Below, piece by piece: positions 12,390 through 52,153 of a DNA stretch of 64,000 nt. Below the pieces are notes generated by a model. It was not told where the DNA came from. It worked only from the letters and a program-made list of their open reading frames with translations, and ran no database searches. The translations under genes were made by a program, and so were the position numbers. Within the stretch, counting starts at the first letter, position 1; every line of letters starts with the position of its first letter. The DNA is from an uncultured Chitinophagaceae bacterium. Lineage in GTDB: Bacteria > Bacteroidota > Bacteroidia > Chitinophagales > Chitinophagaceae. The DNA lies in contig CALGAP010000019.1 in NCBI GenBank assembly GCA_937958995.1, forward strand, positions 2,370 through 66,369, written 5' to 3'.

Positions 12390-12423
12390 GTTGTCTGTTT
12401 GATTCGCTAAATTTAGCCGGTTT

Positions 12424-14055: not shown

Positions 14056-14172
14056 CAAATACGCTAACTACTTCAGTGTCTGCACATTGTTCGGTTACCT
14101 TACGGTGAGATATTAGCTCAGAAAAATATTTGACAAAAATCTTTTATTGTAAATGATTGAATTTCTGACTAC

Positions 14173-14222
14173 TTCGGAAAATACGGAGCGTAACCTTACG
14201 ATGCCTGCTTGTATTTTCCGAA
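14173..14222. repeat. Perfect 12-bp inverted repeat (hairpin) in the AT-rich intergenic region
   Basis: TTCGGAAAATAC (14173-14184) and GTATTTTCCGAA (14211-14222) are separated by 26 nt. No adjacent U-tract on either strand. Confidence 0.6.
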
Positions 14223-14296
14223 AACTGAAATTAATTTTGAATTAAGGTTTTACCCTTAAGTATTATTAGAAGTTCATTTAATGGTAGAACTAAGAT

Positions 14297-14334
14297 TTAT
14301 CCTATAGAAAACCATTCGTTATCCTATAGAAAAC
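14297..14334 (+). promoter_or_regulatory. Two perfect 16-nt direct repeats, a candidate regulator binding site or leader element
   Basis: TTATCCTATAGAAAAC occurs at 14297-14312 and 14319-14334 (22-bp period). A related single copy, TTATCCTAAGAGAGAC, precedes the paralogous gene at 15702. Confidence 0.45.
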
Positions 14335-14364
14335 TGTTACGATTGATCCTAAACCCTTGGAACT

Positions 14365-15636
14365 ATGAGAACGAATGGTACCCTTAAAACACAAAAACTG
14401 TGGCTTATAGCTCTTGCTTTATTGCCCCTGTTTTTCTCTAATTTTTCTAACGCGCAGTCAACTTCAGGCGCAGATTTCGTATTCATTAATCACTCGCTGG
14501 TATCCGGCACCGCCCGTGCCAAAGGCGCTGTGTATCTTTTCCCTTCAGTGAGAAATGGTGTTGATTGCTACGTGACTATCGTGGACATCACTCCTAAAAC
14601 TACTATCCCGACATTTGATGATAATACTGCAGGAACTGGTTTCCGCGAAGCATTTCAGCCCAGGATACAGGTTGAAGGAAAGACGCGCGGCTATGCCGAG
14701 TTTATGTTCCGCTTTGTAAAAGCCGGCACCAACATCGATACCTTGATGAATGAAATTCCTGCTACTTCTATTGATGTGGACGGTAATCGTTCAGGATCTG
14801 ATAGCCTGCTGGAATTTGACGAATACTTTTTACCTTCCACATACCTGGTCGACTTCGATATGCTGGCTGGTGATCTTAGTTTTAACTTTTCGGCAGGTAG
14901 CATTATTGGTCGCAACAAGGCGGCCCAGGAGCATGTCGGCATCGATACCGTTGACCGCTCGGTGATGTTCTCGGTGGTATATCCCCACGCATCAACCTTT
15001 ACTGTACGTATTGGCGTGGACAATACCAAGAGCAACTCCGATAACCGCCAGCGTAGTGTTTATTTCAAACGATTTGTTTATCCCCACTCATTCCTGCCCG
15101 TGCGTGGTTTGCGTTCGTTCACTGCTGCATCGCAGAATAATGCGGTGAAACTGAACTGGACGATGAACCTGGGTCATGATATTGTTGCTGCAGATGTGGA
15201 AAAAAGCGTGAATGGTGCACACTTCACACGTGTGTCGTCGGTATCGATGGCCAGTGAGTTGCAGAGCAGCTATACCGACAACAATGTAAATGGCAATGTT
15301 TATTACCGTTTGAAAATGACCAATGCCACAGGTAAGGTAAGTTATAGTGAAGTGTTGCTGGTGAAGAGCAGCCAGGCGCACAGCGGTTTCAAAGTTTTTC
15401 CGAGTGTGATTGATGATTACACCACGGTTAACTTCAGCGCTGCTAATGCGGGCACCGCCACCTTGATGATTGCCGATAACAATGGAAGAATTGTTAAGCA
15501 ACAGGCAGTATCTGTGCAGCAGGGCGTCAATACGGCGATGGTAAATGGACTTGGCCAATTGCCCGCTGGTCAGTATGTGGCTGTGTTGCGCGGAGCCGGC
15601 TATAACTTTACGCAAAAGATTTTCATCACTAAATAA
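14365..15636 (+). CDS. Secreted protein with a T9SS type A C-terminal sorting domain (paralogue 1)
   Basis: Signal peptide (LFFSNFSNAQS), a ~240-aa N-terminal domain of unknown function, an Ig/FN3-like module, and a C-terminal ~80-aa Por/T9SS tail (FKVFPSVIDDYTTVNF...YVAVLRGAGYNFTQKIFITK). Confidence 0.8.
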   Translation: MRTNGTLKTQKLWLIALALLPLFFSNFSNAQSTSGADFVFINHSLVSGTARAKGAVYLFPSVRNGVDCYVTIVDITPKTTIPTFDDNTAGTGFREAFQPRIQVEGKTRGYAEFMFRFVKAGTNIDTLMNEIPATSIDVDGNRSGSDSLLEFDEYFLPSTYLVDFDMLAGDLSFNFSAGSIIGRNKAAQEHVGIDTVDRSVMFSVVYPHASTFTVRIGVDNTKSNSDNRQRSVYFKRFVYPHSFLPVRGLRSFTAASQNNAVKLNWTMNLGHDIVAADVEKSVNGAHFTRVSSVSMASELQSSYTDNNVNGNVYYRLKMTNATGKVSYSEVLLVKSSQAHSGFKVFPSVIDDYTTVNFSAANAGTATLMIADNNGRIVKQQAVSVQQGVNTAMVNGLGQLPAGQYVAVLRGAGYNFTQKIFITK

Positions 15637-15671
15637 AACGCATTTACCTTATTGATGGCTGTGACTACAGG

Positions 15672-15703
15672 CGTCAACTCCAAGATCCGTTGAACGACTT
15701 TTT
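15672..15703 (+). terminator. Weak terminator candidate after T9SS paralogue 1
   Basis: CGTCAAC...GTTGAACG forms an imperfect 7-bp stem and is followed by CTTTTT. Confidence 0.3.
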
Positions 15704-15757
15704 ATCCTAAGAGAGACCATTCGTAAACAAAGTTCGAAACCCTTTGAAATGTTTATT

Positions 15758-17014
15758 ATGAAAACGAATGGTACACGATTTATTGTTATTGCTGTTGTGT
15801 TTGAGTTGGTTTGCCTCTTAATCAGTTCTTCTGTTAAAGCACAGCCTGAATATGATTTCTCCAACGGCACATTGATAGCGGGTCAACAAAGAAAAGTAGG
15901 CGCCGTCTATCGTTTCACCCAGGTTCGTCCCAACGTTGATGCCCTGGTAACTATTACGGATCTCACCGGTGGTGTTACATTAAACGACATCGATGGCGGT
16001 TCGGGTTTTAAAAGAGCTTTTCAGCCTGTAATACAGGTGCCCGCCAAATCGATGGGGTATGCTGAATTCAGAATCAGCTTCGTGGTGGCCAATACTACTA
16101 CTCCTGCTGTTCAGGGAGAAGTGCCCATGACGCCGATCGATGTGGACGGACAAACCTATGCCAGTGGTAAGGTGTTTGAATTTGACCAGATCGAGAATGT
16201 TTCGGGCCTGGCCAATTATATAGACTTTAACCAGTTGGCTGGTGAGCTGAATCTTCAGCTGGGCCAGGATTGGCTGACTGGCAGAAATACGGCGTCCATT
16301 GACTATCCCGGTGTGGATACTATGGCAAAGCAGGCCATGTTTACCGTAGTGATAGCATCAGTACAGGCTGTTACCATTCGAGTAGGCGCCGACAACCAGA
16401 CCAGTCAAAGCCTTCAGCGCCTGCGCAGTGTTTATTTTAAGCGATTCACTTACCCGCACTCAGCGCTGCCTGCATCGAGTGTTGTGCGTTTTACAGGTGT
16501 TGAAAAACAAGATAAGGTAGAACTGAGCTGGCAACTTACTGCTGAAAATCAGCTCAGCAAAGTGATAGTAGAAAAAGGCAACTCTTCTTCGCAGTTCAAT
16601 GCGATCGGTGAAGTGACTATCGGTCATGGCAGAACGAATTACAACTTTACCGATATCTCCGGCATCAATTCAGCGGCCTATTACCGCCTGAAACTGGTTG
16701 CTGTGGATGGCAGCATTTCTTACAGTAATGTGTTGACCTTCCGCAATGGCGCATTGGCTCAGACCTTTAAAGTATATCCGAGCGTGGTTAACAGTTCGGT
16801 TACTGTAACGGTAAAAGGTAATCAGTCAGGCGCAGCTACCTTCCAACTGCTCGACTATGCCGGCCGTGTGGTGAAGCAGCAACGCATTGCGGTGCAGGAA
16901 GGTAACAATAATGTAGTATTTAACGACCTGGGCGATGTGATTCCCGGGAACTATATAGTAGCATTAAAAACAAACGATAACCAGACTTATACACAGAAAA
17001 TTATAAAACAGTAA
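15758..17014 (+). CDS. Secreted protein with a T9SS type A C-terminal sorting domain (paralogue 2)
   Basis: Same architecture as 14365-15636, with colinear similarity (GAVYRF/GAVYLF, GFKRAFQPVIQV/GFREAFQPRIQV, GYAEF, IDVDG, SVYFKRF.YPHS, FKVYPSV). I chose the start at 15758 (MKTNGT) by analogy to MRTNGT in paralogue 1. An alternative ATG lies at 15749. Confidence 0.8.
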   Translation: MKTNGTRFIVIAVVFELVCLLISSSVKAQPEYDFSNGTLIAGQQRKVGAVYRFTQVRPNVDALVTITDLTGGVTLNDIDGGSGFKRAFQPVIQVPAKSMGYAEFRISFVVANTTTPAVQGEVPMTPIDVDGQTYASGKVFEFDQIENVSGLANYIDFNQLAGELNLQLGQDWLTGRNTASIDYPGVDTMAKQAMFTVVIASVQAVTIRVGADNQTSQSLQRLRSVYFKRFTYPHSALPASSVVRFTGVEKQDKVELSWQLTAENQLSKVIVEKGNSSSQFNAIGEVTIGHGRTNYNFTDISGINSAAYYRLKLVAVDGSISYSNVLTFRNGALAQTFKVYPSVVNSSVTVTVKGNQSGAATFQLLDYAGRVVKQQRIAVQEGNNNVVFNDLGDVIPGNYIVALKTNDNQTYTQKIIKQ

Positions 17015-17078
17015 ATCGTAACGTCACAGATTACGCTTAAGGCAAACTAAGATACCATTTGTTTTTGCCGTACCCAGT

Positions 17079-17100
17079 AGCCCCGATGAAAGTCGGGGCT
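17079..17100 (+). terminator. Hairpin terminator candidate after T9SS paralogue 2
   Basis: AGCCCCGA-TGAAAG-TCGGGGCT forms an 8-bp GC-rich stem. The downstream T-tract is poor (TCACTTGTAT). Confidence 0.45.
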
Positions 17101-17171
17101 TCACTTGTATCCGGATGTATTAGACGTTTGTGAATACAAGATTGATCGCGGATTAGCAGGGGTTGCGCAGA

Positions 17172-17218
17172 TTGCGCGGATAAACTATATGAATTTACAT
17201 CTCTCTTATCCGCGCAAC
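17172..17218 (-). terminator. 12-bp perfect inverted repeat downstream of msrA (possible terminator)
   Basis: TTGCGCGGATAA (17172-17183) and TTATCCGCGCAA (17207-17218) with a 23-nt loop. It lies 32 nt past the msrA stop. No clear U-tract. Confidence 0.3.
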
Positions 17219-17249
17219 CTGCGAAATTCCAAATAACCCGTGATTAAGC

Positions 17250-17915
17250 TCAGTGCTTCAGCTTTTCCTTAAACACCTTCCTGAACTTTTCCAGCTTGGG
17301 GCGGATCACATAATAGCAATATGGCTGCGACCCGTTCTGGTTGTAATAATCCTGGTGATAATTTTCGGCCTCGTAGAAAGTCTTGTAAGGAGAAATTTCA
17401 GTGACGATCGGGTTGTCCCAGGCGCCGCTTTTGTCGAGTTCGGCTTTATATTTTTCAGCTTTTGTCTTTTGCTCTTCGTTGTGATAGAAAATTACACTGC
17501 GGTATTGGGGGCCCACATCATTGCCCTGCCGGTTGGGCGTGGTGGGATCGTGTGTCTGCCAGAAAACTTCCAGTAACTCGTCGTAACTGATCTTTTGGGG
17601 ATCGTATACCACCTGTACACACTCTGCATGTCCGGTAGTGCCCGTTGTGACTTCCTTATAGGTTGGATTAACTACATGGCCGCCGCTATACCCCGAAGTT
17701 ACTTTCAGTACTCCGTCCAGTTCCTGGAAAATGGCTTCTGTACACCAGAAACAGCCGGTGCCAAAGGTGGCGGTATCCACCTGGCGGGAGTCATCGCCCG
17801 CAACGGCGGCGGTGGTTTTTAAACTGGTACTCATATTTTTCTCTGCATTTTGTGTTTGTGCGCATGAAAGCAAGGTAGCAAGCGTGACAATCGTACCTGT
17901 AAAGATGAAATTCAT
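17250..17915 (-). CDS. msrA: Peptide-methionine (S)-S-oxide reductase, exported/lipoprotein form
   Basis: GCFWCTE active-site motif and a conserved MsrA core. The N-terminus MNFIFTGTIVTLATLLSCAQ looks like a lipoprotein signal. The ORF could also start at 17945. Confidence 0.9.
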   Translation of the reverse strand: MNFIFTGTIVTLATLLSCAQTQNAEKNMSTSLKTTAAVAGDDSRQVDTATFGTGCFWCTEAIFQELDGVLKVTSGYSGGHVVNPTYKEVTTGTTGHAECVQVVYDPQKISYDELLEVFWQTHDPTTPNRQGNDVGPQYRSVIFYHNEEQKTKAEKYKAELDKSGAWDNPIVTEISPYKTFYEAENYHQDYYNQNGSQPYCYYVIRPKLEKFRKVFKEKLKH

Positions 17916-40217: not shown

Positions 40218-41951
40218 TTGATGAAAATGAAATATTTCCAGTTCCTTTCCTTGCTGCTGGTACTTCAAACCGGCCTGGCGCAAAATGTGGCCATCAATAA
40301 TACCGGCGCAGAGCCCGATTCCAACGCCATTCTTGACATCAGCTCGGATACGAAAGGGCTGCTGATTCCCAGGATGACAACTGCTGCGCGGGAAGCCATA
40401 CCCAACACGGTAGGATTGATGGTGTATGATACAGATACCAAATCGTTCTGGTACAATGACGGTAGTGCGTGGGTAGACCTGGCGGTGGGAAAGGGCTGGG
40501 CGCTGGGAGGAAATGCGGGCACTGATCCTGCCGTTCATTTCATCGGCACTACCGATTTAAGGCCGCTCATTTTTAAAGTCAATAATGATCAGTCAGGCAT
40601 AATCGATCCTGCCAGAGAAAATGTGGCGTTTGGATATGTCTCGTTAATGCTTAATTCTACGGGATCCGACAATACCGCGATTGGATACTGGGCCATGGCA
40701 TCAAACACAGATGGCGTTTCTAATACAGCGATTGGCAATACAGCCCTGGCTTGGAATACTTCAGGCATCGAGAATACTGCTGTTGGCGCTTATGCCTTGC
40801 GCTCCAATTCGACGGGTCAAAGAAATACAGGCTTGGGGTATGGCTCTCTTTTCGAAAACACTACGGGCTCAGGGAATACCGCTTTGGGGCATCTATCTTT
40901 AACATCTAATACCACAGGTTCCAATAATACCGCGGTGGGGTGGAGTGCGCTTGGTGAAAATACGATAGCTGCGCTGAATACAGCCGTTGGTTGGGAATCG
41001 ATGCGATTTAGTGCCGAAGGTGGATCCAATACGGCCCTGGGCGCACAATCTTTATTAAGAAATGCAGGAACTAATAATGTAGGGATTGGTTATTCCACAT
41101 TAAGTTCGAATACAAGTGGCAGTTACAACACGGCAGTAGGGACAGAAGCATTATATTTTAACACAACCGGCCAGGACAATGCAGCCGTGGGCTATAGGTC
41201 GATGCTTTATAATACTACGGGTTTGTATAATGCCGGATTTGGCAATTATGCTTTTGTAAATAATGTTTCAGGTAACGGCAATGCGGGTGTGGGATATCAC
41301 GCAGCAAGTCTGAACACCACGGGTTCTGATAACGTGGCTGTTGGCATCTATGCGCTGCGTGGAAACGAAACGGGCGATGGAAATATCGCAATAGGGGCCT
41401 ATGCCGATGTCGCTTCAGGTGATCTTTATAATGCAATTGCAATCGGAAGCGACGCGGTGGTTGATCAATCCAACAAGATACGTCTTGGTAACGGCGCCAT
41501 CACTGTCATAGAAGCACAGGTGCCTCTTACCACTCCCTCCGACGGTCGTTTTAAATTCAATGTGCAGGAAGATGTGAAGGGGCTGGACTTCATCTTGAAA
41601 CTTCGTCCGGTCACCTACCAGTTCAACGTGCAGCAATTTGATGAGGGATTCAGCAGGTTGACTGCGAAGAAGGACGCTGGCATAAACGAGCTTCCCCAAA
41701 CCAGATTAAACTATAATGCCGCCCTGCAACAGCGCCGCATTGGCTTCATAGCGCAGGAGGTGGAGGAGGCCGCCGCGAGTGCCGGGTTCAATTTCAGCGG
41801 TCTTACCAGGCCCCAATCACCTGAGCAGCACTACAGTCTCAGCTATGAAAGTTTTGTGGTGCCACTGGTAAAAGCCGTTCAGGAACAGCAGGAAATTATA
41901 GAAGAATTGAAAAGAGAGATAAAGGAATTGAGGGAAATGATTAAGAAATAG
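40218..41951 (+). CDS. Tail-fibre-like secreted protein: about 20 NTAxG-type beta-helix repeats plus a C-terminal S74 intramolecular chaperone (endosialidase chaperone) domain
   Basis: Signal peptide (LLLVLQTGLAQN). A repeated 14-aa unit (..NTAIG..AL..NTTG..). C-terminal SDGRFKFNVQ...LRPVTYQF...RIGFIAQEVEE...SLSYESFVVPLVKAVQEQQ, plus a terminal coiled coil. Confidence 0.75.
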   Translation: MMKMKYFQFLSLLLVLQTGLAQNVAINNTGAEPDSNAILDISSDTKGLLIPRMTTAAREAIPNTVGLMVYDTDTKSFWYNDGSAWVDLAVGKGWALGGNAGTDPAVHFIGTTDLRPLIFKVNNDQSGIIDPARENVAFGYVSLMLNSTGSDNTAIGYWAMASNTDGVSNTAIGNTALAWNTSGIENTAVGAYALRSNSTGQRNTGLGYGSLFENTTGSGNTALGHLSLTSNTTGSNNTAVGWSALGENTIAALNTAVGWESMRFSAEGGSNTALGAQSLLRNAGTNNVGIGYSTLSSNTSGSYNTAVGTEALYFNTTGQDNAAVGYRSMLYNTTGLYNAGFGNYAFVNNVSGNGNAGVGYHAASLNTTGSDNVAVGIYALRGNETGDGNIAIGAYADVASGDLYNAIAIGSDAVVDQSNKIRLGNGAITVIEAQVPLTTPSDGRFKFNVQEDVKGLDFILKLRPVTYQFNVQQFDEGFSRLTAKKDAGINELPQTRLNYNAALQQRRIGFIAQEVEEAAASAGFNFSGLTRPQSPEQHYSLSYESFVVPLVKAVQEQQEIIEELKREIKELREMIKK

Positions 41952-41956
41952 GGTGT

Positions 41957-42046
41957 TGGCGGAGAGAGAGGGATTCGAACCCTCGGTACGGTTGCCCGCA
42001 CAACGGTTTTCGAGACCGCCCCATTCAGCCACTCTGGCATCTCTCC
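41957..42046 (-). tRNA. tRNA-Ser (anticodon CGA), class II with a long variable arm and encoded CCA
   Basis: The reverse complement reads GGAGAGA-TG-CCAGAGTGGCTGAATGG-GGCGGT-CTCGAAA-ACCGTT-GTGCGGGCAACCGTACC-GAGGG-TTCGAAT-CCCTC-TCTCTCC-G-CCA. The acceptor and T stems pair perfectly, and the anticodon loop is CU-CGA-AA. Confidence 0.92.
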
Positions 42047-43478: not shown

Positions 43479-43585
43479 GACTCAGTTTTTTAGCAAATGA
43501 TTAATTCGTATTGACAATGTAAAAGTAGCCGGAGTTATTTACCCCGGCACTGTGCGATTGCGACTAATTGAAGGGCAAGTTGCGA

Positions 43586-45211
43586 CTATGGCCTGCCTGC
43601 GACAAAAAGACCACCCTGGTTCCAGGCAGGACGCGCTGTAGTCTGAGCCACGGAATAACTGATCAGGAAATTGAGCTGCACATATGTTTTGGCTGCTGTA
43701 AAGTTGAAAATGCCATCTATGCCATCAGCGGGACGATGGTAATATTTGGCGCGCCATTGCCGCACAAAGGGCACCAGGCTCTCGCCCGTACTCGTTTTGT
43801 TGCCATATTTGATATGCAGCGCGGGTATTCCATTTAACACAAAACTGAACTGATCACTTCGCACAAAACGATTCTCATTCGGCTCGGGATCTTCTTCCAC
43901 TTCAAGACCCAGTTGCGAGGCTGCAAATTGTACATTATTCATCAGGCTGGAATGTTCCGCTCCCAGCGGCACCACAGAAAGCAAGGGAGCGATCAGGGTG
44001 GGCATATCGGTATTTACATTAGCAACAATCGATGATTGTGGAACCGTAGGATTGCTGGCAAAATAAGAAGAACCCAGCAGTCCCATTTCTTCCGCCGTCA
44101 CCATCACAATCAATATCGATCGTTTGGGTTTTACACCGGGCGATTTATAAATGCGGGCAATTTCAAGCAGCGATGCCACGCCCGAAGCATTATCGTGCGC
44201 ACCGTTGTAAATGCTGTCGCCATCTACCGGTCTTCCAACACCCACATGATCGAGATGCGCGGTATGCACCACGTATTCATTTTTCAGTTCCTTATCACTG
44301 CCGGGAATCAGGCCGATCACATTATAGCTTTCAATATCGGTGTGCGAAGTCTTATATCCCGCATGCAGCGTGAAATTGGTTTCGAAAGAAGAGGGCTTTT
44401 TATTCCTGATATCGTTCAGTACCTGCGACAATTTTTTTCCGCTATTGGAAAAAATGCGGTTCAGCAAATTCCGCGTGCCGGTCATCACAATATTGAGGTC
44501 GCCCCTGAAGCCGGAGTATGCTGCAGTTTTATCAGTATTCGTCGCCACATTGGTGTGCACCACCAGGTTGGGATTATATCTGCCCGATGAGGCGGTATTT
44601 ACTACAATAACGCCGAGGGCTCCCTTCGAAAATGCAGTTTTATATTTATTTCCAACATTCGACAAAATCGCGGTAGTAGTATTAGAAAAACCCTGTGGCG
44701 CGCCGCTCATGACCACCACAATTTTACCTTTTACTTCTATGCCTTCATAATCTGAATAAATGTTTGGTGCATCGATACCATAACCTGCGAACGCCACTTT
44801 ACCTTCCGCCGAAGTATTTTCTTTCAGTGGATGCGGCGTCGGGATAAAATCGCGGGAGAAAAGCAACGAGTCTACATTACCGTCTTTATCCTTCAGGCAG
44901 GCAAAGGCAGAACTGTTGTCGACGATTGATTTTCTTATCAGCAGTTTCTGCGTATAGCTGCCCGCTTCGCCACCGGGCGCCACGCCCATTTTCTTAAACT
45001 GGTCTACCACGTAATCCACAGCCATCTGGTAGCCTTCGGTACCCGGCAACCGGCCTTTCAGTTTATCATCGGCCAGGTAAGCAATATGCGACCGGATGGT
45101 ATTGGTATCGATCCGGTTCATAGCATTGCGAACATCTTTTGTGATGGTTACCTGCTGCGCTTGTGCATGACAGCAGGCAAAAACGATGAGGGGTAAGATT
45201 AGCTTTTTCAT
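43586..45211 (-). CDS. M28 family metallopeptidase with an inserted PA (protease-associated) domain, secreted
   Basis: Signal peptide (IVFACCHAQAQQ). Zinc ligand blocks are TAHLDHVG, GAHDNASGVASLLE and TAEEMGLLGS. It starts 16 nt after the CHAT gene stop. Confidence 0.85.
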   Translation of the reverse strand: MKKLILPLIVFACCHAQAQQVTITKDVRNAMNRIDTNTIRSHIAYLADDKLKGRLPGTEGYQMAVDYVVDQFKKMGVAPGGEAGSYTQKLLIRKSIVDNSSAFACLKDKDGNVDSLLFSRDFIPTPHPLKENTSAEGKVAFAGYGIDAPNIYSDYEGIEVKGKIVVVMSGAPQGFSNTTTAILSNVGNKYKTAFSKGALGVIVVNTASSGRYNPNLVVHTNVATNTDKTAAYSGFRGDLNIVMTGTRNLLNRIFSNSGKKLSQVLNDIRNKKPSSFETNFTLHAGYKTSHTDIESYNVIGLIPGSDKELKNEYVVHTAHLDHVGVGRPVDGDSIYNGAHDNASGVASLLEIARIYKSPGVKPKRSILIVMVTAEEMGLLGSSYFASNPTVPQSSIVANVNTDMPTLIAPLLSVVPLGAEHSSLMNNVQFAASQLGLEVEEDPEPNENRFVRSDQFSFVLNGIPALHIKYGNKTSTGESLVPFVRQWRAKYYHRPADGIDGIFNFTAAKTYVQLNFLISYSVAQTTARPAWNQGGLFVAGRP

Positions 45212-45227
45212 GGAGAGAAAGTTACTA

Positions 45228-48200
45228 CTATTTAGTAGTTTGTCGCAACAAAAACCGCAATGCCAACCCGCCCACCAGCATTATTCCAAATCCCATACCT
45301 GCCATCACCCACAGGTTATTTTTCGTGGTCACCACCGCCTGGCTGTCGCCCACCAGCGTCATGCCTGCCCAGAAATAAGGATGCGCAAGATTGGAAGGCG
45401 CTTTGCGCAGGTATTCGATTTTAGCTTTTTGCAGCGCCGCGCCTTTGGTCATTCCCCGGGAGAGGTATTTGTAAAAAAGTGTGACCACTTCTGCGCTGGT
45501 TTTTTCATCCACTTTCCATAATGTCATCACCACAGAGGGACAACCCGCGTACATGAAGCTATGCGCCAGTGAAATCACGCCCTCGCCCTCGCGCCATTGA
45601 CCCGTACCTGTTTCGCAGGCATTCAGTACGGCCAGGTTGGCGTTCAGGTTCATGCCATAGATTTCATAGGCGTGCAGGTAGCCGTCGTCATTCGACGTGC
45701 TGTCTTCCGCAGTGGGCTTGGCTAAGAAAAACCTGGAAAGAATGGGAGAGACGTTGTTGATCTCGGCATGCGTGCCCAGGTGTAAAATTCGGTAGTCACT
45801 TGCGCGTTGTTTAAAACTGCTTTCGAGCGCATCGTGCTCGCTAAGCAAATCTGTTTTGATAAAACGGCTGATCTGTTTTGCCGCTTTAAAGGTAAATGGC
45901 TGACGAATCAGCATCAGGTATTGATTATCGGCCAGCATATCGTCAGCAACGCGTTTGCGGTAGGCCGCTTTCATTTCATCGGAGAATACAGGCGTAATGA
46001 GCAGCGCCTTTTCCGTTTGCTGCCGCTGCGCGTAGTTATAGTGCAACGCGCTGGTGGCGGAAAGCAGGGTGGAGATTTCATATTGCTTTACCAGGTAAGG
46101 CATGGACTCAAAGCCATTGATCTTGCCCGAACTGATCAGTACTTCAAAATTCAGGTAGTGCAATTCGTCGTCGGGTACGATGAACAATTTATTACCGAGC
46201 AAAACTTTTTTTGCGGGGGCTACCAGCTGGGAGTAAAGACGGTAAGCCGGCCGTGCAAAATCCTCGGGTGAGAGGTTATATAATTCTCTTATTAAAGCAA
46301 CATCGTGCAGCACATTGCGCGGCATGCGATGTACGCGGAAATGCTTTTTATTGATGATAAAAAGAAACACTGCATCATTCGTCACAGTGTAATGCAGCAT
46401 GGTCTCGCCGTTTTTCAACAGCTCATTCCTGATCTCGTCAATCGTTGCAGCTTTCATCCTATACTTCAGGCTCGCCGCGGCAGAATTTGATTTCAGCAAT
46501 TTTTCCTGGAAACGGTAATACGATTCCATGGCGGCGCTGAGCAGTGTGAGCAGCGAATCATTCTTGCCGCCTTCGTCCAGGTATTGTGTGTTCAGCTGAC
46601 TGATACGTTTGCGCCAATGCAGGTCTTCCCGGGTGGCAGCATCCTGCACATTGGCCGCGGCATCGATCAGCACGTTGTTTGAGGCCAATCTCAACAGCAG
46701 GCTCTTGCTTGTTTCACTGAACGCAAATGCTTTCTCCAGCCATTGCGGGTTTTTGTCCTGCACGTGCATTTGCCAGCAGGCTTCTACAGCGGCATCGTAA
46801 ATGTACTTGTGTTTGGAAGCAAGCTGAATAAGCGAAGCCTGCGTTCTGATAGCAGGTAAGATTTTTTCCAGGTAACTGCTGTAGTTCCCGGCCAGTTGCT
46901 GAATACGCCGAAGATGCGAGCTGTTATTATTTTTCCTGAAAAGTGCCGATTCTATATTGGCCCGGTTCTGAATGTATTGTATGATGAAGTGATTGTAGGG
47001 CAATTGATCCATCCAATTTCCTTCGGGCAATTGCTTTAGCTGCAGCAGTTCAAGAAACACGCTGTCTGAATAACACATGGCCATTTCGGGCTCCCCCTTA
47101 TCGAGCCAGGCTACGCTGATCTTATTCAACTGCCCGGCAATGACGATATGGCCAGGTTGATAAATCTTGCGGTATTGGCGCAGGCTCTGCTGAATCAATG
47201 CAAATCCTTCATCAAAGCGGTTCAGTTTGGTATACGCTTCGCCCAGGGTGGTGCGCGTGGCTTCTGCCGTCAACACGCTGCTTTTTTGATTGGGTAAAGT
47301 GCGTTGATAATATTTTGCCGCCTCGGCATATTGCTGACGATCAAAGAGCAGATCGCCATAGAGGGTTTCTACATAGGCGAGGTTCAGTTTGTCGTTGGGC
47401 TCTTTTTGCAATTGTATGCGCAGCGCGCGTTGGAAGAGACTGTCTGCCGCTTCAAAATCCTTTATCATTCGCTTCAGGTTGGCCAGATGCGCGAGCGGAC
47501 GCACCAGTCCAACACCATCAGGACCATAATTCATAGTGTGCAGCCGCAAGGCTTTTTCATAGTATTCATTGGCCAGTTGCCATTCCCCAATAGCTTCGTA
47601 CAATTTTCCCATATTATTGAATCCTATGGATAGCAGGTGCGGGTTGCCGTTTTTCCTGAAAGCATCCTGCGTGATGGCAACCATTTGCTGGCGATGATGC
47701 AGCGCCTCATCGGTGCGGTACATGGTTTCATAAAGGGTGCCGAGATCATTATGCGCCAGCGCGCGACTGGTATGCAGGGGAGGAAGATGTTTGTTGACCA
47801 GGCGTTGCATTTCCAGCGCATATTTTTCTGCTTCGTCTAATTTGCCCGCGTCGTGGGCCAGGTACATCAAGGTCTGAAACACACTGGTCAGCATCTGCTC
47901 GTCTTTTCCGTACATGGCTTCGATCATGCTGCGCGATTTTTCTCCAAAAACAATTCCTTCATCAAGCTCCTGCAGGTTCAGGTGCATCCAGGCAATATTG
48001 TTATACAATTTTGCATAAGTATCATTGGGCGGTGCGTTGGAGGGAATGCGTTTGAGCGCGTCGTTGAAATATTTTTTTCCTTCAAGAGCAGCGGAATTGT
48101 TAACCAGTATTTGTCCTTTCTTATTCAAAGCTGCTACAGCAGCAATGCTTTCAAAAGGAAGTTGCGGCAAATAGAAGAGTGCGCTGTCAATAGTGGCAAG

Positions 48201-48437
48201 TCCCCGGCTGACACTCACTTCATACCAGGCCATGTGCGCCTTTTGCGTATAGGCAACCACCAGGCTATCTGTCTGGCCGGTAATTCGGAAATAATCGATC
48301 GCCTGCTGCATATAAATCCAGGCGCTGTCTTTCTTTTGTGCATCGTAGGCTTCGACGGCTTTTTTATAGCTGCCGGCTTGCGCCATCACGATGTGAACGG
48401 AAAGTATGAAAAGCAAAAAGAAAAAAACACGCTGCAT
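45228..48437 (-). CDS. Exported TPR-repeat CHAT (caspase-like) protease with a C-terminal transmembrane anchor
   Basis: I chose the start at MQRVFFFLLFILSVHIVMAQA (signal peptide). About 700 aa of TPR-like repeats follow. The CHAT domain has His in ILHLGTHAE (codon 45768-45770) and Cys in VLNACETG (codon 45615-45617). A C-terminal TM helix is WVMAGMGFGIMLVGGLALRFLL. Confidence 0.8.
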   Translation of the reverse strand: MQRVFFFLLFILSVHIVMAQAGSYKKAVEAYDAQKKDSAWIYMQQAIDYFRITGQTDSLVVAYTQKAHMAWYEVSVSRGLATIDSALFYLPQLPFESIAAVAALNKKGQILVNNSAALEGKKYFNDALKRIPSNAPPNDTYAKLYNNIAWMHLNLQELDEGIVFGEKSRSMIEAMYGKDEQMLTSVFQTLMYLAHDAGKLDEAEKYALEMQRLVNKHLPPLHTSRALAHNDLGTLYETMYRTDEALHHRQQMVAITQDAFRKNGNPHLLSIGFNNMGKLYEAIGEWQLANEYYEKALRLHTMNYGPDGVGLVRPLAHLANLKRMIKDFEAADSLFQRALRIQLQKEPNDKLNLAYVETLYGDLLFDRQQYAEAAKYYQRTLPNQKSSVLTAEATRTTLGEAYTKLNRFDEGFALIQQSLRQYRKIYQPGHIVIAGQLNKISVAWLDKGEPEMAMCYSDSVFLELLQLKQLPEGNWMDQLPYNHFIIQYIQNRANIESALFRKNNNSSHLRRIQQLAGNYSSYLEKILPAIRTQASLIQLASKHKYIYDAAVEACWQMHVQDKNPQWLEKAFAFSETSKSLLLRLASNNVLIDAAANVQDAATREDLHWRKRISQLNTQYLDEGGKNDSLLTLLSAAMESYYRFQEKLLKSNSAAASLKYRMKAATIDEIRNELLKNGETMLHYTVTNDAVFLFIINKKHFRVHRMPRNVLHDVALIRELYNLSPEDFARPAYRLYSQLVAPAKKVLLGNKLFIVPDDELHYLNFEVLISSGKINGFESMPYLVKQYEISTLLSATSALHYNYAQRQQTEKALLITPVFSDEMKAAYRKRVADDMLADNQYLMLIRQPFTFKAAKQISRFIKTDLLSEHDALESSFKQRASDYRILHLGTHAEINNVSPILSRFFLAKPTAEDSTSNDDGYLHAYEIYGMNLNANLAVLNACETGTGQWREGEGVISLAHSFMYAGCPSVVMTLWKVDEKTSAEVVTLFYKYLSRGMTKGAALQKAKIEYLRKAPSNLAHPYFWAGMTLVGDSQAVVTTKNNLWVMAGMGFGIMLVGGLALRFLLRQTTK

Positions 48438-48447
48438 GAACTTCGGT

Positions 48448-49176
48448 TTAGGGTGTTTGCTCCATGGCTGGTTCTGACAATAATTTGCTGGCCTGCTCAT
48501 TGCCGGGAATGGTTTTTAACCAGCGGGCGGCATTGGCTTTGTCGCCGAGTTTGATATACACGAGCGACAAATACCAGGCGGCGCGCTCGCGCAGGGCGCT
48601 GTTCTCATTTTCTGCTACAGGCTGCAGGCGGCTTGCGGCTTCATTGTATTCTGAAATATGAATATGCGCCATCCCCATATAGTATTGAAGCGTGTCGCTG
48701 AGTCCTTTTTCGCGGCCGAGCGAATCCCATTTGGCAATGGCATCGTTAAACTGACCTTCCTTATAGCTCACCATGCCGTCGTAAAATGTGTAGGCATCGG
48801 TACTGCTCATTACCACGGGCAAACCAGGATCGGGTTGATAGTAGCGTGCATACAGATCTTTTTCCCCCGATTGTTGAATAATGAACCACACCGCGCTGCC
48901 GGCAATCAGTATGATGGCTGCGGCCACGGCTAATTTTCTCCAGTTAATCATCGGGCGCACCACGGCTTTCTCTGCGAAAGGTTGGGTGGAGAGATAAGCG
49001 CCCACTTCTGCAGTGGCCATTAGTTTGCGTTGCAACTCCACTTCGATGCGCAATGATTCATCAGCGTTCATTTCCTGCTCAAAAGCCTGTTGCGCGGCTG
49101 CGTCCATATGTCCCAGCAGGTAAGCTTCGATGCGCCCGAAGGTAGCCTGGTCTATTTCTTTTCTATATTCCGCCAT
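48448..49176 (-). CDS. Putative anti-sigma factor: short cytoplasmic N-terminus, one TM helix, extracytoplasmic TPR domain
   Basis: It overlaps the ECF sigma gene stop by 14 nt. The N-terminus IEAYLLGHMDAAAQQAFEQEM is typical of Bacteroidota anti-sigma N-termini. The TM helix is LAVAAAIILIAGSAVWFII. C-terminal TPR-like helices are present. Confidence 0.6.
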   Translation of the reverse strand: MAEYRKEIDQATFGRIEAYLLGHMDAAAQQAFEQEMNADESLRIEVELQRKLMATAEVGAYLSTQPFAEKAVVRPMINWRKLAVAAAIILIAGSAVWFIIQQSGEKDLYARYYQPDPGLPVVMSSTDAYTFYDGMVSYKEGQFNDAIAKWDSLGREKGLSDTLQYYMGMAHIHISEYNEAASRLQPVAENENSALRERAAWYLSLVYIKLGDKANAARWLKTIPGNEQASKLLSEPAMEQTP

Positions 49177-49717
49177 GCGCTTTGTTTTCGAGATACAATT
49201 TTCTCAGCCGCTGCATGCACCGGTATTTGATGGTCTTGATACTTTCTTCAGTATCGCCGGTGATCTCCGCGATTTTCGACATCGGTTCTTTTTTATAATA
49301 AAACAGTCCCAATACTTTCTTGCATTTTTCTCCCAGTTCGTTAAAACATTTCCGCAACAGCTTCCCTTCATCATTTGATTTTTCTGCTGCGAAATCTTCA
49401 TCCTGCGCAGGTTCTATGCCGGTGAAATCATCGCGGTAACTCGTCCTGGCGCGATGCGCCGAGTTGAGCTGGTTGATCCACTTATTCTGGCAGATTCTTC
49501 GGAAATATGCATTAAACTGGTCCATGTTGCCGGCAAAACGACCTTCGCGCAGATTGATCCATGCTGCATACAGGCTTTCCTGGAAAATATCTTCTGCATC
49601 GGAAGCATTCCCTGAATTCTGTCTTATATACTGAAGCAACCACGGAAAATTGGTCGTAAAAAGATGTTTAAACGCTTCTTCAGGATGGGTGATGGGCCAG
49701 TCAGTTAAAACTTGCAA
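49163..49717 (-). CDS. ECF-type RNA polymerase sigma-70 family factor
   Basis: Region 2 (DAEDIFQESLYAAWINL) and a region 4 HTH (EPMSKIAEITGDTEESIKTIKYRCMQRLRKL). The apparent start codon is TTG, and there is no in-frame ATG before region 2. Confidence 0.85.
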   Translation of the reverse strand: MQVLTDWPITHPEEAFKHLFTTNFPWLLQYIRQNSGNASDAEDIFQESLYAAWINLREGRFAGNMDQFNAYFRRICQNKWINQLNSAHRARTSYRDDFTGIEPAQDEDFAAEKSNDEGKLLRKCFNELGEKCKKVLGLFYYKKEPMSKIAEITGDTEESIKTIKYRCMQRLRKLYLENKAHGGI

Positions 49718-49795
49718 CGATTTAGGTACTTTATTTTGGAAGATAGTGAAAATACCAAATTATCGTGACCTGGATCGTTGCAAGTTTGATGGTGA

Positions 49796-50449
49796 CTACT
49801 TCTTTCCTGCAAATCTTTGACGAAAGGCAAATGTTCCTGCGCCGCCCATCATCAGCACGATGCCTGCAATCACAGGAATACTGAATTTCGTTGGTTCCGC
49901 GTTCATTTCATAAGTGATCACTGCGTTGCCGAATGTATCGGTATCCTGTTTTACATTGCCGGCGCCTTCGGGCAGAAAAATTTTCTGCAACTGCTGAATG
50001 AGCATGCCGCCGGAGAGCAGGTTGCCGGTAAGCAGGAAGCAATTGTCAGACACTTTGGTTACGTTCGGGTCTTTCATATCCATTTTCACTTCCCATTTGC
50101 CATTGCCTTTGTATTGCGCCATGCCGCGGGCCTTAACGGTGGTGCGTGAAGTGCGGTTGTTTTCGTCGAGATCAGTTTTTACTTCTTCCAGTATAAGCGA
50201 TGCCATTTGCCTTTCCATATCTCTCTTGAAAATGGTGGGGTTGCTGGCTACCGAGCTGGCCTTGAACGACTGCCATTGCAATGCTGTCATTTTCATGCGT
50301 AGCTCCATGGTGGCATCTCCGAGCCGGTCAATATGTATGTCAATTTCCTGGTTAAGACCTGTAGGGTCTTGTGCTTGCTGGCATAAGGCAGTAGTGGTAT
50401 TGATGATGATGCAGCCAAAAACGAGTATGCTGACAAAAATCTTTTTCAT
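49796..50449 (-). CDS. Hypothetical exported protein with a C-terminal TM anchor
   Basis: 217 aa with a signal peptide (ILVFGCIIINTTTALCQQ), a soluble domain with no motif I recognise, and a C-terminal helix (IPVIAGIVLMMGGAGTFAF) followed by RQRFAGKK. Confidence 0.5.
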   Translation of the reverse strand: MKKIFVSILVFGCIIINTTTALCQQAQDPTGLNQEIDIHIDRLGDATMELRMKMTALQWQSFKASSVASNPTIFKRDMERQMASLILEEVKTDLDENNRTSRTTVKARGMAQYKGNGKWEVKMDMKDPNVTKVSDNCFLLTGNLLSGGMLIQQLQKIFLPEGAGNVKQDTDTFGNAVITYEMNAEPTKFSIPVIAGIVLMMGGAGTFAFRQRFAGKK

Positions 50450-50473: not shown

Positions 50474-52153
50474 TTACCTCAGTGAGGTTAATATTTGTTG
50501 AGCAATCTGCTGGTTGTTGTTGGTAGAAACGATCAGTCCTTCCACGCGGCCGTTGCGTGCGCGCAGCGCGCCAATCCAGGGAAACTGTTGTCCGTTGGCA
50601 GCCGAGAAGCCGCTCAGCACGGTGAAACCGTTCATGGTGCCCGTTTGCTGGTAACCGATCTGGATATTGCTGGCGTAAAGCATCATCCGCAAATCTTCCA
50701 TTGCCTGCTCTACGGAATAGGAATCGGGAAAGTCGTACACTTCTGCCGTGGCGGCGTCATTGGGACAACGAATTACTGCAGCCAGCATGGGTACATTGGG
50801 ATAAGGCCTGCGTACCACCTGGGAACCGCGCGGATAGACAAACTTGATGTTGCCGTTGTAGGTCACGTAGTTGGCGTTGCCTCCGCCGCCTCCGCCACCA
50901 GGATTATTGCCACCGCCGCCACCGCCGGTGTTGCCGCTGCCCATGTTGGAGTTGGGTGCATTCGCAAAATCATTATTCTGCGCTCCGCCTTCCCATTTGG
51001 CAACGATTTCATCAATTTTTTGCTGGGTGAAATTATCTTCCTTCAGTTCCATAGGTTGCACACCGTTTTTCAGTTCCTGCGACACGTCCACGATATAGTA
51101 CCTGTCGTCGCCCATCTGTGCGCGCTGGAAGAACTCGTTCAGTTCTTTCATACCCATCTGAAGAGCCTCATCTGCCGATTTGGATCCGCCGATGCCTGCG
51201 CCCCCGATGGCGGTAGCTTCAATGGCGTAATATTGTCCGTTGAGGCGGAAGCCAGGATACGCATGTCCCGGAATGTAGAAGATCACCGGGTCCATACCGG
51301 CATTGCGCATCACGCTGGCATACAGGAAGCTGAGTTCGATACACAGGCCGGTGTTATTACGAAGCACCTCGCGCGGCAGCCGCACGCGTTGCACCAGCGT
51401 TTGAATATCACCGGTACTCGAGGGAACGGCTTGCGTGCTGCTGTACACCATGCCCGAACGTAAGGTAGCTTCGTAAATAGCTTTCAGGAACCGCACACCT
51501 TCTTCGGCAGTGCGGGTAACGCCGGCTGTCTCACCTTTCAGTATCTTTTCCTGTATTTTGCCGGTATAGTAGCGTACCACCGGGTCTTCGGCCGTAATAA
51601 AGCAAACCGACAGCGGGTTGTTTTGCATAATGTCTGCGTAGCTCACGATTTCCGATGCCGGCATATCTGTGTATGCAAAATCGCCTATCGCCATCATGGT
51701 GAAGGTAAACGTCTCCTTGATCTCTTTACGGTTTCCGGCCGGTCCCCAGGAGATCCTCAGTTCAGCCTTCTCTTTAGATTGGCTGTTTTTCTCCGTGATC
51801 TTCTGGTCGAAGGCGGGATAGCCCATGGCCACAATCTTTTGTCCGGGCAGCACGTTGGGTGAGGTGATGGCCTCCTGCCACTCATCGATATATTTCGGGA
51901 TACGGTATTCCACTTTCAGGTTTTCCGCCATTTTATCGCCATCATTTTCGATAATGGCCTTAAACAGATTGTACCTGCCTCCGAGTACTTCGGGATTAGC
52001 ATACACTTTGTAAGCCGCAGGCATAATGTAGGTCGCCGGTTTTATCTTCACTTTAAGGTCGGGCGAGCCGCTGAAAAACCAGCCATAAGAGAACAGTAGC
52101 GCTCCGGCGACAAACAGCAAAATCGGCCCGAGCGGATTTTTAATGAATCGCAT
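50474..52153 (-). CDS. Membrane-anchored transglutaminase-like (papain-fold) protein with a poly-Gly linker and a C-terminal domain of unknown function
   Basis: N-terminal TM helix (ILLFVAGALLFSYGWFF). The transglutaminase-core triad context is GLCIELSFLYASVMRNAG (Cys codon 51341-51343), IPGHAYPGF (His codon 51263-51265) and YYAIEAT. A Gly-rich linker is GSGNTGGGGGGNNPGGGGGGGN. Confidence 0.6.
   Translation of the reverse strand: MRFIKNPLGPILLFVAGALLFSYGWFFSGSPDLKVKIKPATYIMPAAYKVYANPEVLGGRYNLFKAIIENDGDKMAENLKVEYRIPKYIDEWQEAITSPNVLPGQKIVAMGYPAFDQKITEKNSQSKEKAELRISWGPAGNRKEIKETFTFTMMAIGDFAYTDMPASEIVSYADIMQNNPLSVCFITAEDPVVRYYTGKIQEKILKGETAGVTRTAEEGVRFLKAIYEATLRSGMVYSSTQAVPSSTGDIQTLVQRVRLPREVLRNNTGLCIELSFLYASVMRNAGMDPVIFYIPGHAYPGFRLNGQYYAIEATAIGGAGIGGSKSADEALQMGMKELNEFFQRAQMGDDRYYIVDVSQELKNGVQPMELKEDNFTQQKIDEIVAKWEGGAQNNDFANAPNSNMGSGNTGGGGGGNNPGGGGGGGNANYVTYNGNIKFVYPRGSQVVRRPYPNVPMLAAVIRCPNDAATAEVYDFPDSYSVEQAMEDLRMMLYASNIQIGYQQTGTMNGFTVLSGFSAANGQQFPWIGALRARNGRVEGLIVSTNNNQQIAQQILTSLR

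Follow-up and report, generated by a model that had tools for sequence, protein, structure and literature searches.

We describe a cassette of co-directional genes on the minus strand of a 64,000-nucleotide stretch of DNA from an uncultured Chitinophagaceae bacterium (contig CALGAP010000019.1, positions 2,370 to 66,369). This stretch, at its full length, is referred to as the window, and all positions are counted within it. Four open reading frames (ORFs) are tightly packed at the locus. In the order in which they are read, they encode an extracytoplasmic function (ECF; group IV) sigma factor of 184 amino acids (aa) with a TTG start (49163..49717), a 242-aa single-pass, non-zinc anti-sigma factor (48448..49176), a 1069-aa protein starting with MQRVF that couples tetratricopeptide repeats (TPRs) to a CHAT protease domain and is predicted to be exported and held in the membrane by a C-terminal anchor (45228..48437), and a 541-aa M28 (PA-domain) peptidase (43586..45211). 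Central to this analysis are the first three genes and the manner in which the TPR-CHAT protein may control the sigma factor.

The sigma factor gene overlaps the anti-sigma gene by 14 nucleotides (nt), and gaps of 10 nt and 16 nt separate the anti-sigma gene from the CHAT gene and the CHAT gene from the M28 gene. These values were recomputed and agree with a first-pass annotation of the locus; its checkable statements on gene positions, spacing, catalytic codons, signal peptide, and transmembrane helices are all correct. The CHAT ORF can be extended to a longer version that begins at 48500; the start at 48437 is backed by the orthologues, which begin at the signal peptide. An independent gene caller, applied to metagenome contigs of the same species, also returned products of 184, 242, 1069, and 541 aa.

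Features of the sigma factor, the anti-sigma factor, and the TPR-CHAT protein

The sigma factor is an ECF (group IV) member of the sigma-70 superfamily. At 184 aa, it contains only the sigma2 and sigma4 regions (Pfam Sigma70_r2, PF04542, and Sigma70_r4, PF04545), and it scores above the cutoff of the superfamily model TIGR02937 in NCBIfam (74.4 bits, cutoff 42.9). For all the NCBIfam models of ECF subgroups, the score lies below cutoff. The position of the TTG start is consistent with the alignment of orthologues.

The anti-sigma factor is predicted to bind the sigma factor on one side of the membrane and to expose a TPR domain on the other. Its AlphaFold2 (AF2) model, with an overall predicted local distance difference test score (pLDDT) of 85, runs from three N-terminal helices through a disordered linker and a transmembrane helix to a non-helical segment and a three-repeat TPR module. 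The three-helix region (48991..49176, residues 1-62) resembles an anti-sigma domain and would be cytoplasmic; its helices (residues 10-20, 26-38, and 40-62) are modeled at pLDDT 95-98, and the conserved N-terminal pattern reads FExIEAYLL...FE..M..D..L..EV. Hydropathy bears out a single transmembrane helix at residues ~82-101 (48874..48933), with a Kyte-Doolittle maximum of 2.63 and an AF2 helix spanning 81-112. The TPR module (48460..48792, residues 129-239) is placed in the periplasm by this topology; it is modeled at pLDDT 94-98 and gives weak matches to TPR hidden Markov models (HMMs). In Foldseek comparisons, the module superposes on the TPR domain of YbgF, on SycD/PcrH, and on RPAP3 TPR2, an Hsp90-peptide-binding domain, with target-normalized TM-scores of 0.75-0.8. 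In the model, the ectodomain looks like a TPR of the peptide-binding type.

In terms of class, the anti-sigma factor lacks a zinc motif because the protein contains no Cys at all; the H-x3-C-x2-C signature of zinc-binding anti-sigma (ZAS) factors is absent, in line with the first-pass annotation. The modeled N-terminal helical domain, followed by a transmembrane helix and encoded beside the sigma gene, places the protein with class I anti-sigma domain (ASDI) proteins, sigma binding itself being predicted. In a scan of 31 family members, 30 match the N-terminal part of NF052375 ("anti-sigma factor") below its curated cutoff, with a best E=3e-9, and 10 match PRK13920. The family comprises 625 representatives at 50% identity (E<=1e-30). 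Its source annotations read "hypothetical," "TPR protein," or "YbgF family," and none reads anti-sigma.

Conservation in the anti-sigma family peaks away from the sigma-binding end, in the periplasmic juxtamembrane sequence LYxxYFxPDPGLPVxMSSTDxYxFYDGMVSYKEG. Within it lies the motif DPGLPVVMS (48805..48831, residues 116-124), a candidate site of protease recognition or cleavage, which falls in the segment that the AF2 model leaves non-helical (residues 113-128). Across 72 orthologues, the D, G, L, and M of D-x-G-L-P-V-x-M are present in every sequence, the P in 71, and the V in 70, and the motif begins 14-22 residues past the transmembrane helix (median 17). The motif is found a single time when the window is translated in six frames, and each anti-sigma gene among the loci has one copy.

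The TPR-CHAT protein has a complete CHAT domain and the predicted features of an exported, tethered enzyme. HMM searches, proposed at the outset as a check on both domains, detected CHAT (PF12770, E=4.6e-54, 184 bits versus a cutoff of 24, covering positions 2-289 of the 289 in the profile) and matched TPR_12 and TPR_10. The caspase-like CHAT domain (45345..46253, residues 729-1031) holds the catalytic dyad at the codons first assigned to it: CAT at 45768-45770 encodes His890, and TGC at 45615-45617 encodes Cys941. The first-pass annotation had made its proposal depend on conservation of this dyad; both residues are invariant in the 22 orthologues that were aligned and in all 117 complete cassette-linked proteins. 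The family includes 40 full-length orthologues at 40-100% identity.

Almost all of these full-length orthologues begin with a hydrophobic segment that ends in A/Q-type sites. In the protein described here, the predicted signal peptide comprises residues 1-21 (48375..48437), a hydrophobic N-terminus by hydropathy that ends between VMAQA and G. It is followed by a TPR-like alpha-solenoid (46458..48374, residues 22-660) that would be periplasmic and that AF2 models as helical repeats, with pLDDT mostly 80-97; this extent is consistent with the ~700 aa of TPR-like repeats first estimated. Pfam TPR models cover just residues ~217-430, and the matches of the TPR region in the PDB are to TPRs of the kinesin-light-chain type. 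The solenoid is presumed to be a sensor or a substrate-binding region.

At the other end of the protein, hydropathy supports the single C-terminal transmembrane helix (45252..45314, residues ~1042-1062), which is followed by the basic tail RFLLRQTTK. Among 75 orthologues, the distance from the end of the CHAT domain to this helix has a median of 13 residues (range 8-18), and the tail beyond the helix has a median length of 8 residues with 4 K/R. This arrangement suggests a type I membrane protein whose body is periplasmic and whose catalytic domain sits at the membrane surface. The prediction that the TPR-CHAT body and the TPR domain of the anti-sigma factor share the periplasmic side is upheld by conservation of the signal peptide, the C-terminal helix, and the K/R-rich tail.

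Links to solved structures were also sought. A search of the PDB with the single CHAT protein sequence returned no match, and a profile of the CHAT domain returned one, to the Myxococcus protein DdvA (8rot_B), at an insignificant E=0.33 over 90 residues around the catalytic Cys. The Foldseek matches of the AF2 model were dominated by TPR proteins; separase was among them, with low TM-scores driven by the helical region. Both routes to the solved CHAT proteins were set aside, the one by sequence and the one by structure, for which the catalytic core is poorly modeled.

A conserved three-gene cassette in Bacteroidota

The gene order was followed in two directions, from the CHAT protein and from the anti-sigma factor. 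A scan with one genome per species recovered a CHAT orthologue, 28-79% identical, at 77 loci, which span Chitinophagaceae, Parapedobacter, Algoriphagus, Flavobacteriales/Cryomorphaceae, Saprospiraceae, and one Bacteroidales metagenome-assembled genome (MAG). Sigma, anti-sigma, and CHAT genes abut on one strand in this order in 70 of the 70 loci that have enough upstream sequence; the remaining 7 of the 77 are truncated contigs. For the reverse test, an alignment of the anti-sigma factor served as a probe on metagenome contigs, and the CHAT N-terminus, which is poorly conserved, was sought with a profile. A sigma gene lies upstream in all ~72 testable loci, where apparent exceptions are over-extended ORF calls, and a TPR-CHAT gene lies immediately downstream of the anti-sigma gene in 61 of 66. 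Four of the five exceptions come from a distant branch (26-29% identity), and one has too little flanking sequence. The co-occurrence outside the source genome, on which the first-pass annotation had also staked its proposal, holds in both search directions and across deep divergence.

The M28 peptidase is a genuine member of its family (PF04389, E=7e-42, plus a PA domain), and its place beside the cassette is peculiar to the source species. An M28 homologue adjoins the cassette in 0 of 157 related loci (77 genome and 80 metagenome), and the arrangement is seen on same-species contigs only. In the closest relative, a Terrimonas MAG (79% identity), an oxidoreductase-like gene begins 20 nt after the CHAT gene. 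No conserved fourth gene follows CHAT among the loci examined. Since M28 is absent from the 157 related loci and no downstream gene is generally conserved, the conserved unit consists of three genes, sigma, anti-sigma, and TPR-CHAT, and it is widespread in Bacteroidota. The first-pass annotation had counted M28 as a fourth component that trims cleavage products; this membership is rejected on synteny, which leaves M28 as a species-specific neighbor. In the source genome, M28 may be co-transcribed with CHAT: the 16-nt gap contains no terminator, and a terminator-like hairpin is found only after M28 (43528..43548, minus strand), with an 8-bp stem, 6 GC pairs, and a T-rich tail. The hairpin is a consensus match only and a possible end of the transcription unit.

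Fusions of the anti-sigma factor with CHAT, which would have provided a Rosetta-stone link, were looked for and not found among the 150 best HMM representatives (all 194-258 aa) or the 120 best word-indexed matches; this line of evidence was dropped.

Several loci show variants of the cassette. In the distant branch without an adjacent CHAT gene (loci L149, L150, L154, and L155; for example, L155 5350-6717), the protease may be encoded elsewhere or lost; the space downstream in L155 is occupied by opposite-strand genes, including one for an 808-aa protein of unknown type. Some Flavobacteriales carry tandem TPR-CHAT pairs after a single sigma/anti-sigma pair (L042 3927-10460, L052 911-7889, L068 3610-10289, and L097 6420-12658). 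Both copies keep the His/Cys dyad in L042, L052, and L068, and the second copy of L097 runs off the end of the locus. Such tandem genes may point to hetero-oligomeric proteases. The cassette is sometimes paralogous within one genome, because some genomes of Parapedobacter and one Flavobacteriales MAG have a second sigma/anti-sigma pair or an extra CHAT gene within a few kb (L025 14681-15980, L024 27-827, and L059 1332-2677). The titles of some MAG records (Citrobacter, Limnohabitans) clash with the Bacteroidota-type loci that they contain, as in L013, L026, L033, and several "uncultured Chryseobacterium" records; the bins are probably mislabeled.

The sigma start is preceded, at a distance of 28 nt, by CTATCTTCC (49738..49746, minus strand; family consensus GTATCTTyC), which is a candidate for a -10/-7 promoter box. 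Its core TATCTT is found 26-33 nt 5' of the aligned sigma start in 27 loci of Chitinophagales, Sphingobacteriales, and Cytophagales. The related element CGTATTATCGTG lies ~28 nt upstream of the sigma genes in 23 Flavobacteriales loci, which also share a conserved ATGGAC 16 nt further upstream. No -35 element shared across these groups of loci was found, and a search of the window for a regulon was of no use with the 9-mer, which is too degenerate to define one. The GTATCTTyC element could be a promoter for the cassette sigma factor or a housekeeping -7 box of the Bacteroidota.

The genes around the cassette vary. Two co-directional genes lie upstream in the window: the product of the one just before the sigma gene (49796-50449, minus strand) has 217 aa, a signal peptide, and a transmembrane helix at its C-terminus, and the product of the other (50474-52153, minus strand) has 559 aa, a transmembrane helix at its N-terminus, a Gly/Asn-rich tract, and a weak resemblance, over part of its length, to the anti-phage protein ProA (E=8e-14, residues 215-308). 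Both were considered as cassette components and rejected; they have no Pfam domains, are kept only in the closest relatives (L001, L013, L032, and L079), and are treated as lineage-specific neighbors. Downstream of CHAT, the L002 locus (11291-17690) and ten other Chitinophagaceae loci carry a PorV-family gene (PF19572), and a largely overlapping set of 11 Chitinophagaceae loci also carries a gene for a ~1740-aa protein with a type IX secretion system (T9SS) C-terminal sorting domain; this PorV/T9SS-cargo neighborhood is lineage-specific. Elsewhere in the window, a plus-strand gene (40218-41951) encodes a 577-aa, tail-fibre-like protein that contains repeats of the NTA(I/V)G type and carries a Peptidase_S74 ("chaperone of endosialidase") domain at its C-terminus; the gene is adjoined by a tRNA gene (41960-42046, minus strand).

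Relation to characterized systems

The first-pass annotation knew of no experimental characterization of such a module. No paper among the literature searched describes the Bacteroidota cassette, and a neighborhood-level mention in the ECF Hub tables is possible. The claim overlooked the DdvA-DdvS system of Myxococcus (PMC11506125), and an association of CHAT with the ECF54 group has also been noted (PMC8999054).

DdvA-DdvS is the closest characterized system to the cassette. In Myxococcus xanthus, these proteins form an ECF sigma/anti-sigma pair in which the transmembrane anti-sigma factor itself carries a periplasmic TPR-CHAT region with a conserved His-Cys dyad (PMC11506125). Removal of this region exposes DdvA to the intramembrane protease RseP, and the authors proposed a signal-induced, site-1 autoproteolysis of the juxtamembrane linker by CHAT, a step that they were unable to demonstrate for want of a known signal (PMC11506125). 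The cassette shares with DdvA the coupling of an ECF sigma/anti-sigma pair to a TPR-CHAT region with a His-Cys dyad that faces the periplasm, a location that is predicted for the cassette. Both anti-sigma factors are single-pass, and the flexible juxtamembrane linker of DdvA is the proposed site-1 position ahead of RseP.

The two systems also differ. The cassette encodes two proteins (242 aa and 1069 aa) in all loci, whereas DdvA is one 991-aa chain; the cassette TPR-CHAT protein has its own signal peptide and C-terminal anchor, whereas the TPR-CHAT region of DdvA is anchored N-terminally. DdvA contains a CHCC zinc site, whereas the cassette anti-sigma factor has neither Cys nor a zinc site. 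The CHAT domain of the cassette fits the full Pfam profile, whereas that of DdvA lacks three helices. The hosts belong to different phyla, Bacteroidota and Myxococcota, and no island for CRISPR or for the cyclic-oligonucleotide-based anti-phage signaling system (CBASS) adjoins the cassette. Finally, the cassette family is large (625 clusters at 50% identity, E<=1e-30), whereas the distribution of DdvA-like proteins is narrow: they are found only in Myxococcota and one Comamonas (PMC11506125).

A second precedent is the type III-E craspase, composed of Cas7-11/gRAMP, the TPR-CHAT protease Csx29, Csx30, Csx31, and RpoE, in which Csx29 cleaves Csx30 and thereby controls an ECF sigma factor (PMC10028731). 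As is proposed for the cassette, a TPR-CHAT protease stands upstream of an ECF-type sigma factor in craspase and cleaves a partner that inhibits it. However, craspase is cytoplasmic, RNA-guided, and CRISPR-associated, whereas the cassette protease is predicted to be periplasmic; the inhibitor is a membrane anti-sigma factor in the cassette and Csx30 in craspase. The independence from CRISPR that was first claimed is supported. The 64-kb window contains no tandem repeats or CRISPR arrays, and the only conserved neighbors of CHAT are the genes for the sigma and anti-sigma factors; no search was aimed directly at Cas genes. PADLOC found no defense system and gave a generic TPR match only, and an assignment of the cassette to a defense system was rejected on these grounds.

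Release of sigma factors by intramembrane proteolysis of their anti-sigma factors has well-known examples, such as RseA/DegS/RseP, RsiW/PrsW, RsiV, and the FecR-type systems with Prc/CtpA. The site-1 proteases known from such systems belong to the serine proteases, the metalloproteases, or the signal peptidases, and their genes usually lie elsewhere. The cassette anti-sigma factor resembles the canonical substrates in its single pass and its N-terminal cytoplasmic sigma-binding domain, and loss of its periplasmic domain would license site-2 cleavage. The candidate site-1 protease differs in being caspase-like (clan CD) and in having its gene within the cassette itself. A further parallel is found in the actinobacterial ECF54 group, whose genes occur with genes for CHAT, carboxypeptidase, and subtilase proteins and for which proteolytic regulation was proposed (PMC8999054). 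As in the cassette, an ECF sigma gene is conserved beside a gene for a CHAT-domain protein; ECF54 is described as having no anti-sigma factor (PMC8999054), whereas the cassette always includes a dedicated one.

Proposed control of the anti-sigma factor and its significance

We tentatively favor reading the cassette as an envelope-signaling unit whose TPR-CHAT protein both senses the signal and serves as the site-1 protease for the anti-sigma factor. The ECF sigma factor would be held at the inner membrane by the cytoplasmic three-helix domain of its single-pass, non-zinc anti-sigma factor. The CHAT protein, exported by its signal peptide and tethered to the same membrane by its C-terminal helix, would present its catalytic domain beside the membrane surface. 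Detection of a periplasmic, probably proteinaceous signal by the ~640-residue TPR solenoid would activate the His890/Cys941 dyad, and the CHAT domain would cut the anti-sigma factor in or near the invariant juxtamembrane motif. Removal of a folded periplasmic domain is the standard license for site-2 cleavage. The truncated anti-sigma factor would become a substrate for an RseP-type intramembrane protease and for cytoplasmic proteases, ultimately setting the sigma factor free. In this form, the cassette would divide between two polypeptides what DdvA combines in a single anti-sigma/TPR-CHAT fusion. Because the flanking genes vary between lineages, the target genes would be either the cassette itself or dispersed elsewhere.

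A site-1 role for CHAT is plausible, and it is favored because the three-gene association is obligate, the dyad is invariant, export and anchor signals are present, the motif is periplasmic, and the geometry is membrane-proximal. The catalytic domain and the juxtamembrane motif appear to lie at similar short distances from the same membrane face, and a conserved, unstructured motif is what a protease recognition or docking site would be expected to look like. The motif and the geometry are new support of a circumstantial kind. The more specific claim, that a large Bacteroidota family of at least 625 clusters at 50% identity uses a tethered periplasmic TPR-CHAT protein as sensor and site-1 protease and cuts at D-P-G-L-P-V-x-M, is possible and is held with less confidence than the general one.

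Several points weigh against the site-1 reading. Neither experiment nor structural modeling has shown that CHAT touches or cuts the anti-sigma factor, and CHAT-mediated cleavage has not been demonstrated even for DdvA (PMC11506125). The topology was read from hydropathy with the help of the positive-inside rule and does not come from a dedicated predictor. The AF2 model has pLDDT <50 in the catalytic core (residues 806-979), which leaves active-site geometry and accessibility unmodeled. The four distant anti-sigma homologues keep D-x-G-L-P-V-x-M without an adjacent CHAT gene. In addition, synteny would be equally strict if the protease were the sole regulated output of the sigma factor.

This last arrangement is the main rival, and synteny cannot separate the two. 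The TPR-CHAT protein would be an output of the sigma factor and not its regulator: the anti-sigma factor would sense through its own TPR domain and be processed by generic proteases, and the sigma factor would drive the operon to raise the level of an envelope protease whose targets are other proteins, periplasmic or invading. ECF operons commonly place effector genes downstream of the sigma/anti-sigma pair, and a regulator and its only target would likewise co-occur strictly. The flanking genes vary by lineage, so the cassette may be the entire regulon, and the motif persists in the four homologues that have no CHAT gene beside them. However, regulated output leaves unexplained why the most conserved feature of the anti-sigma factor is an invariant, extended juxtamembrane motif and why CHAT is tethered within ~13 residues of the same membrane face; moreover, the two precedents, DdvA and Csx29-Csx30, each place CHAT upstream of the sigma factor. 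We regard it as somewhat unlikely.

Alternatively, the TPR-CHAT protein could be a non-cutting partner of the anti-sigma ectodomain, a co-sensor comparable to RseB that shields it from another site-1 protease or relays a conformational signal, with the protease activity aimed at CHAT itself or at a signal protein. TPRs, which are protein-interaction modules, lie on the same membrane face in both proteins, the tandem CHAT genes of some Flavobacteriales fit oligomeric assemblies, and the resting state of DdvA is a dimer (PMC11506125). Set against this, a CHAT profile matched over its full length and a dyad that never varies point to genuine catalysis, and the cassette contains no other conserved protease gene; the role of a non-cutting partner is quite improbable. 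A four-gene operon in which the M28 aminopeptidase trims the products of CHAT cleavage can be given almost no weight: the 16-nt gap without a terminator, the hairpin placed only past M28, and the signal-peptide-like N-terminus of M28 would fit it, but the 0/157 count, the oxidoreductase-like gene in the place of M28 in the 79%-identical Terrimonas locus, and the confinement to same-species contigs speak against it.

The site-1 reading can be tested directly, since substrate and enzyme are on separate polypeptides and the candidate cleavage motif is sharply defined. If it is true, the two separable proteins would allow CHAT-driven regulated intramembrane proteolysis, so far unproven, to be examined in trans. 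DdvA would have a naturally split counterpart in the cassette, and CHAT would represent a new mechanistic class of site-1 protease, adding an enzyme class to the regulated proteolysis of anti-sigma factors. The link between TPR-CHAT proteases and ECF sigma factors, known from craspase and DdvA in anti-phage defense, would become a widespread, CRISPR-independent signaling design.

Bacteroidota have the most ECF sigma factors of any phylum, ~22 per genome, and only ~6% of these have a recognized class I anti-sigma factor (PMC7826278, PMC7406223). In this setting, the cassette is widespread and so far unstudied. It defines an abundant and currently misannotated family of anti-sigma factors, paired with a candidate signal-sensing protease of the caspase/separase type in the periplasm.

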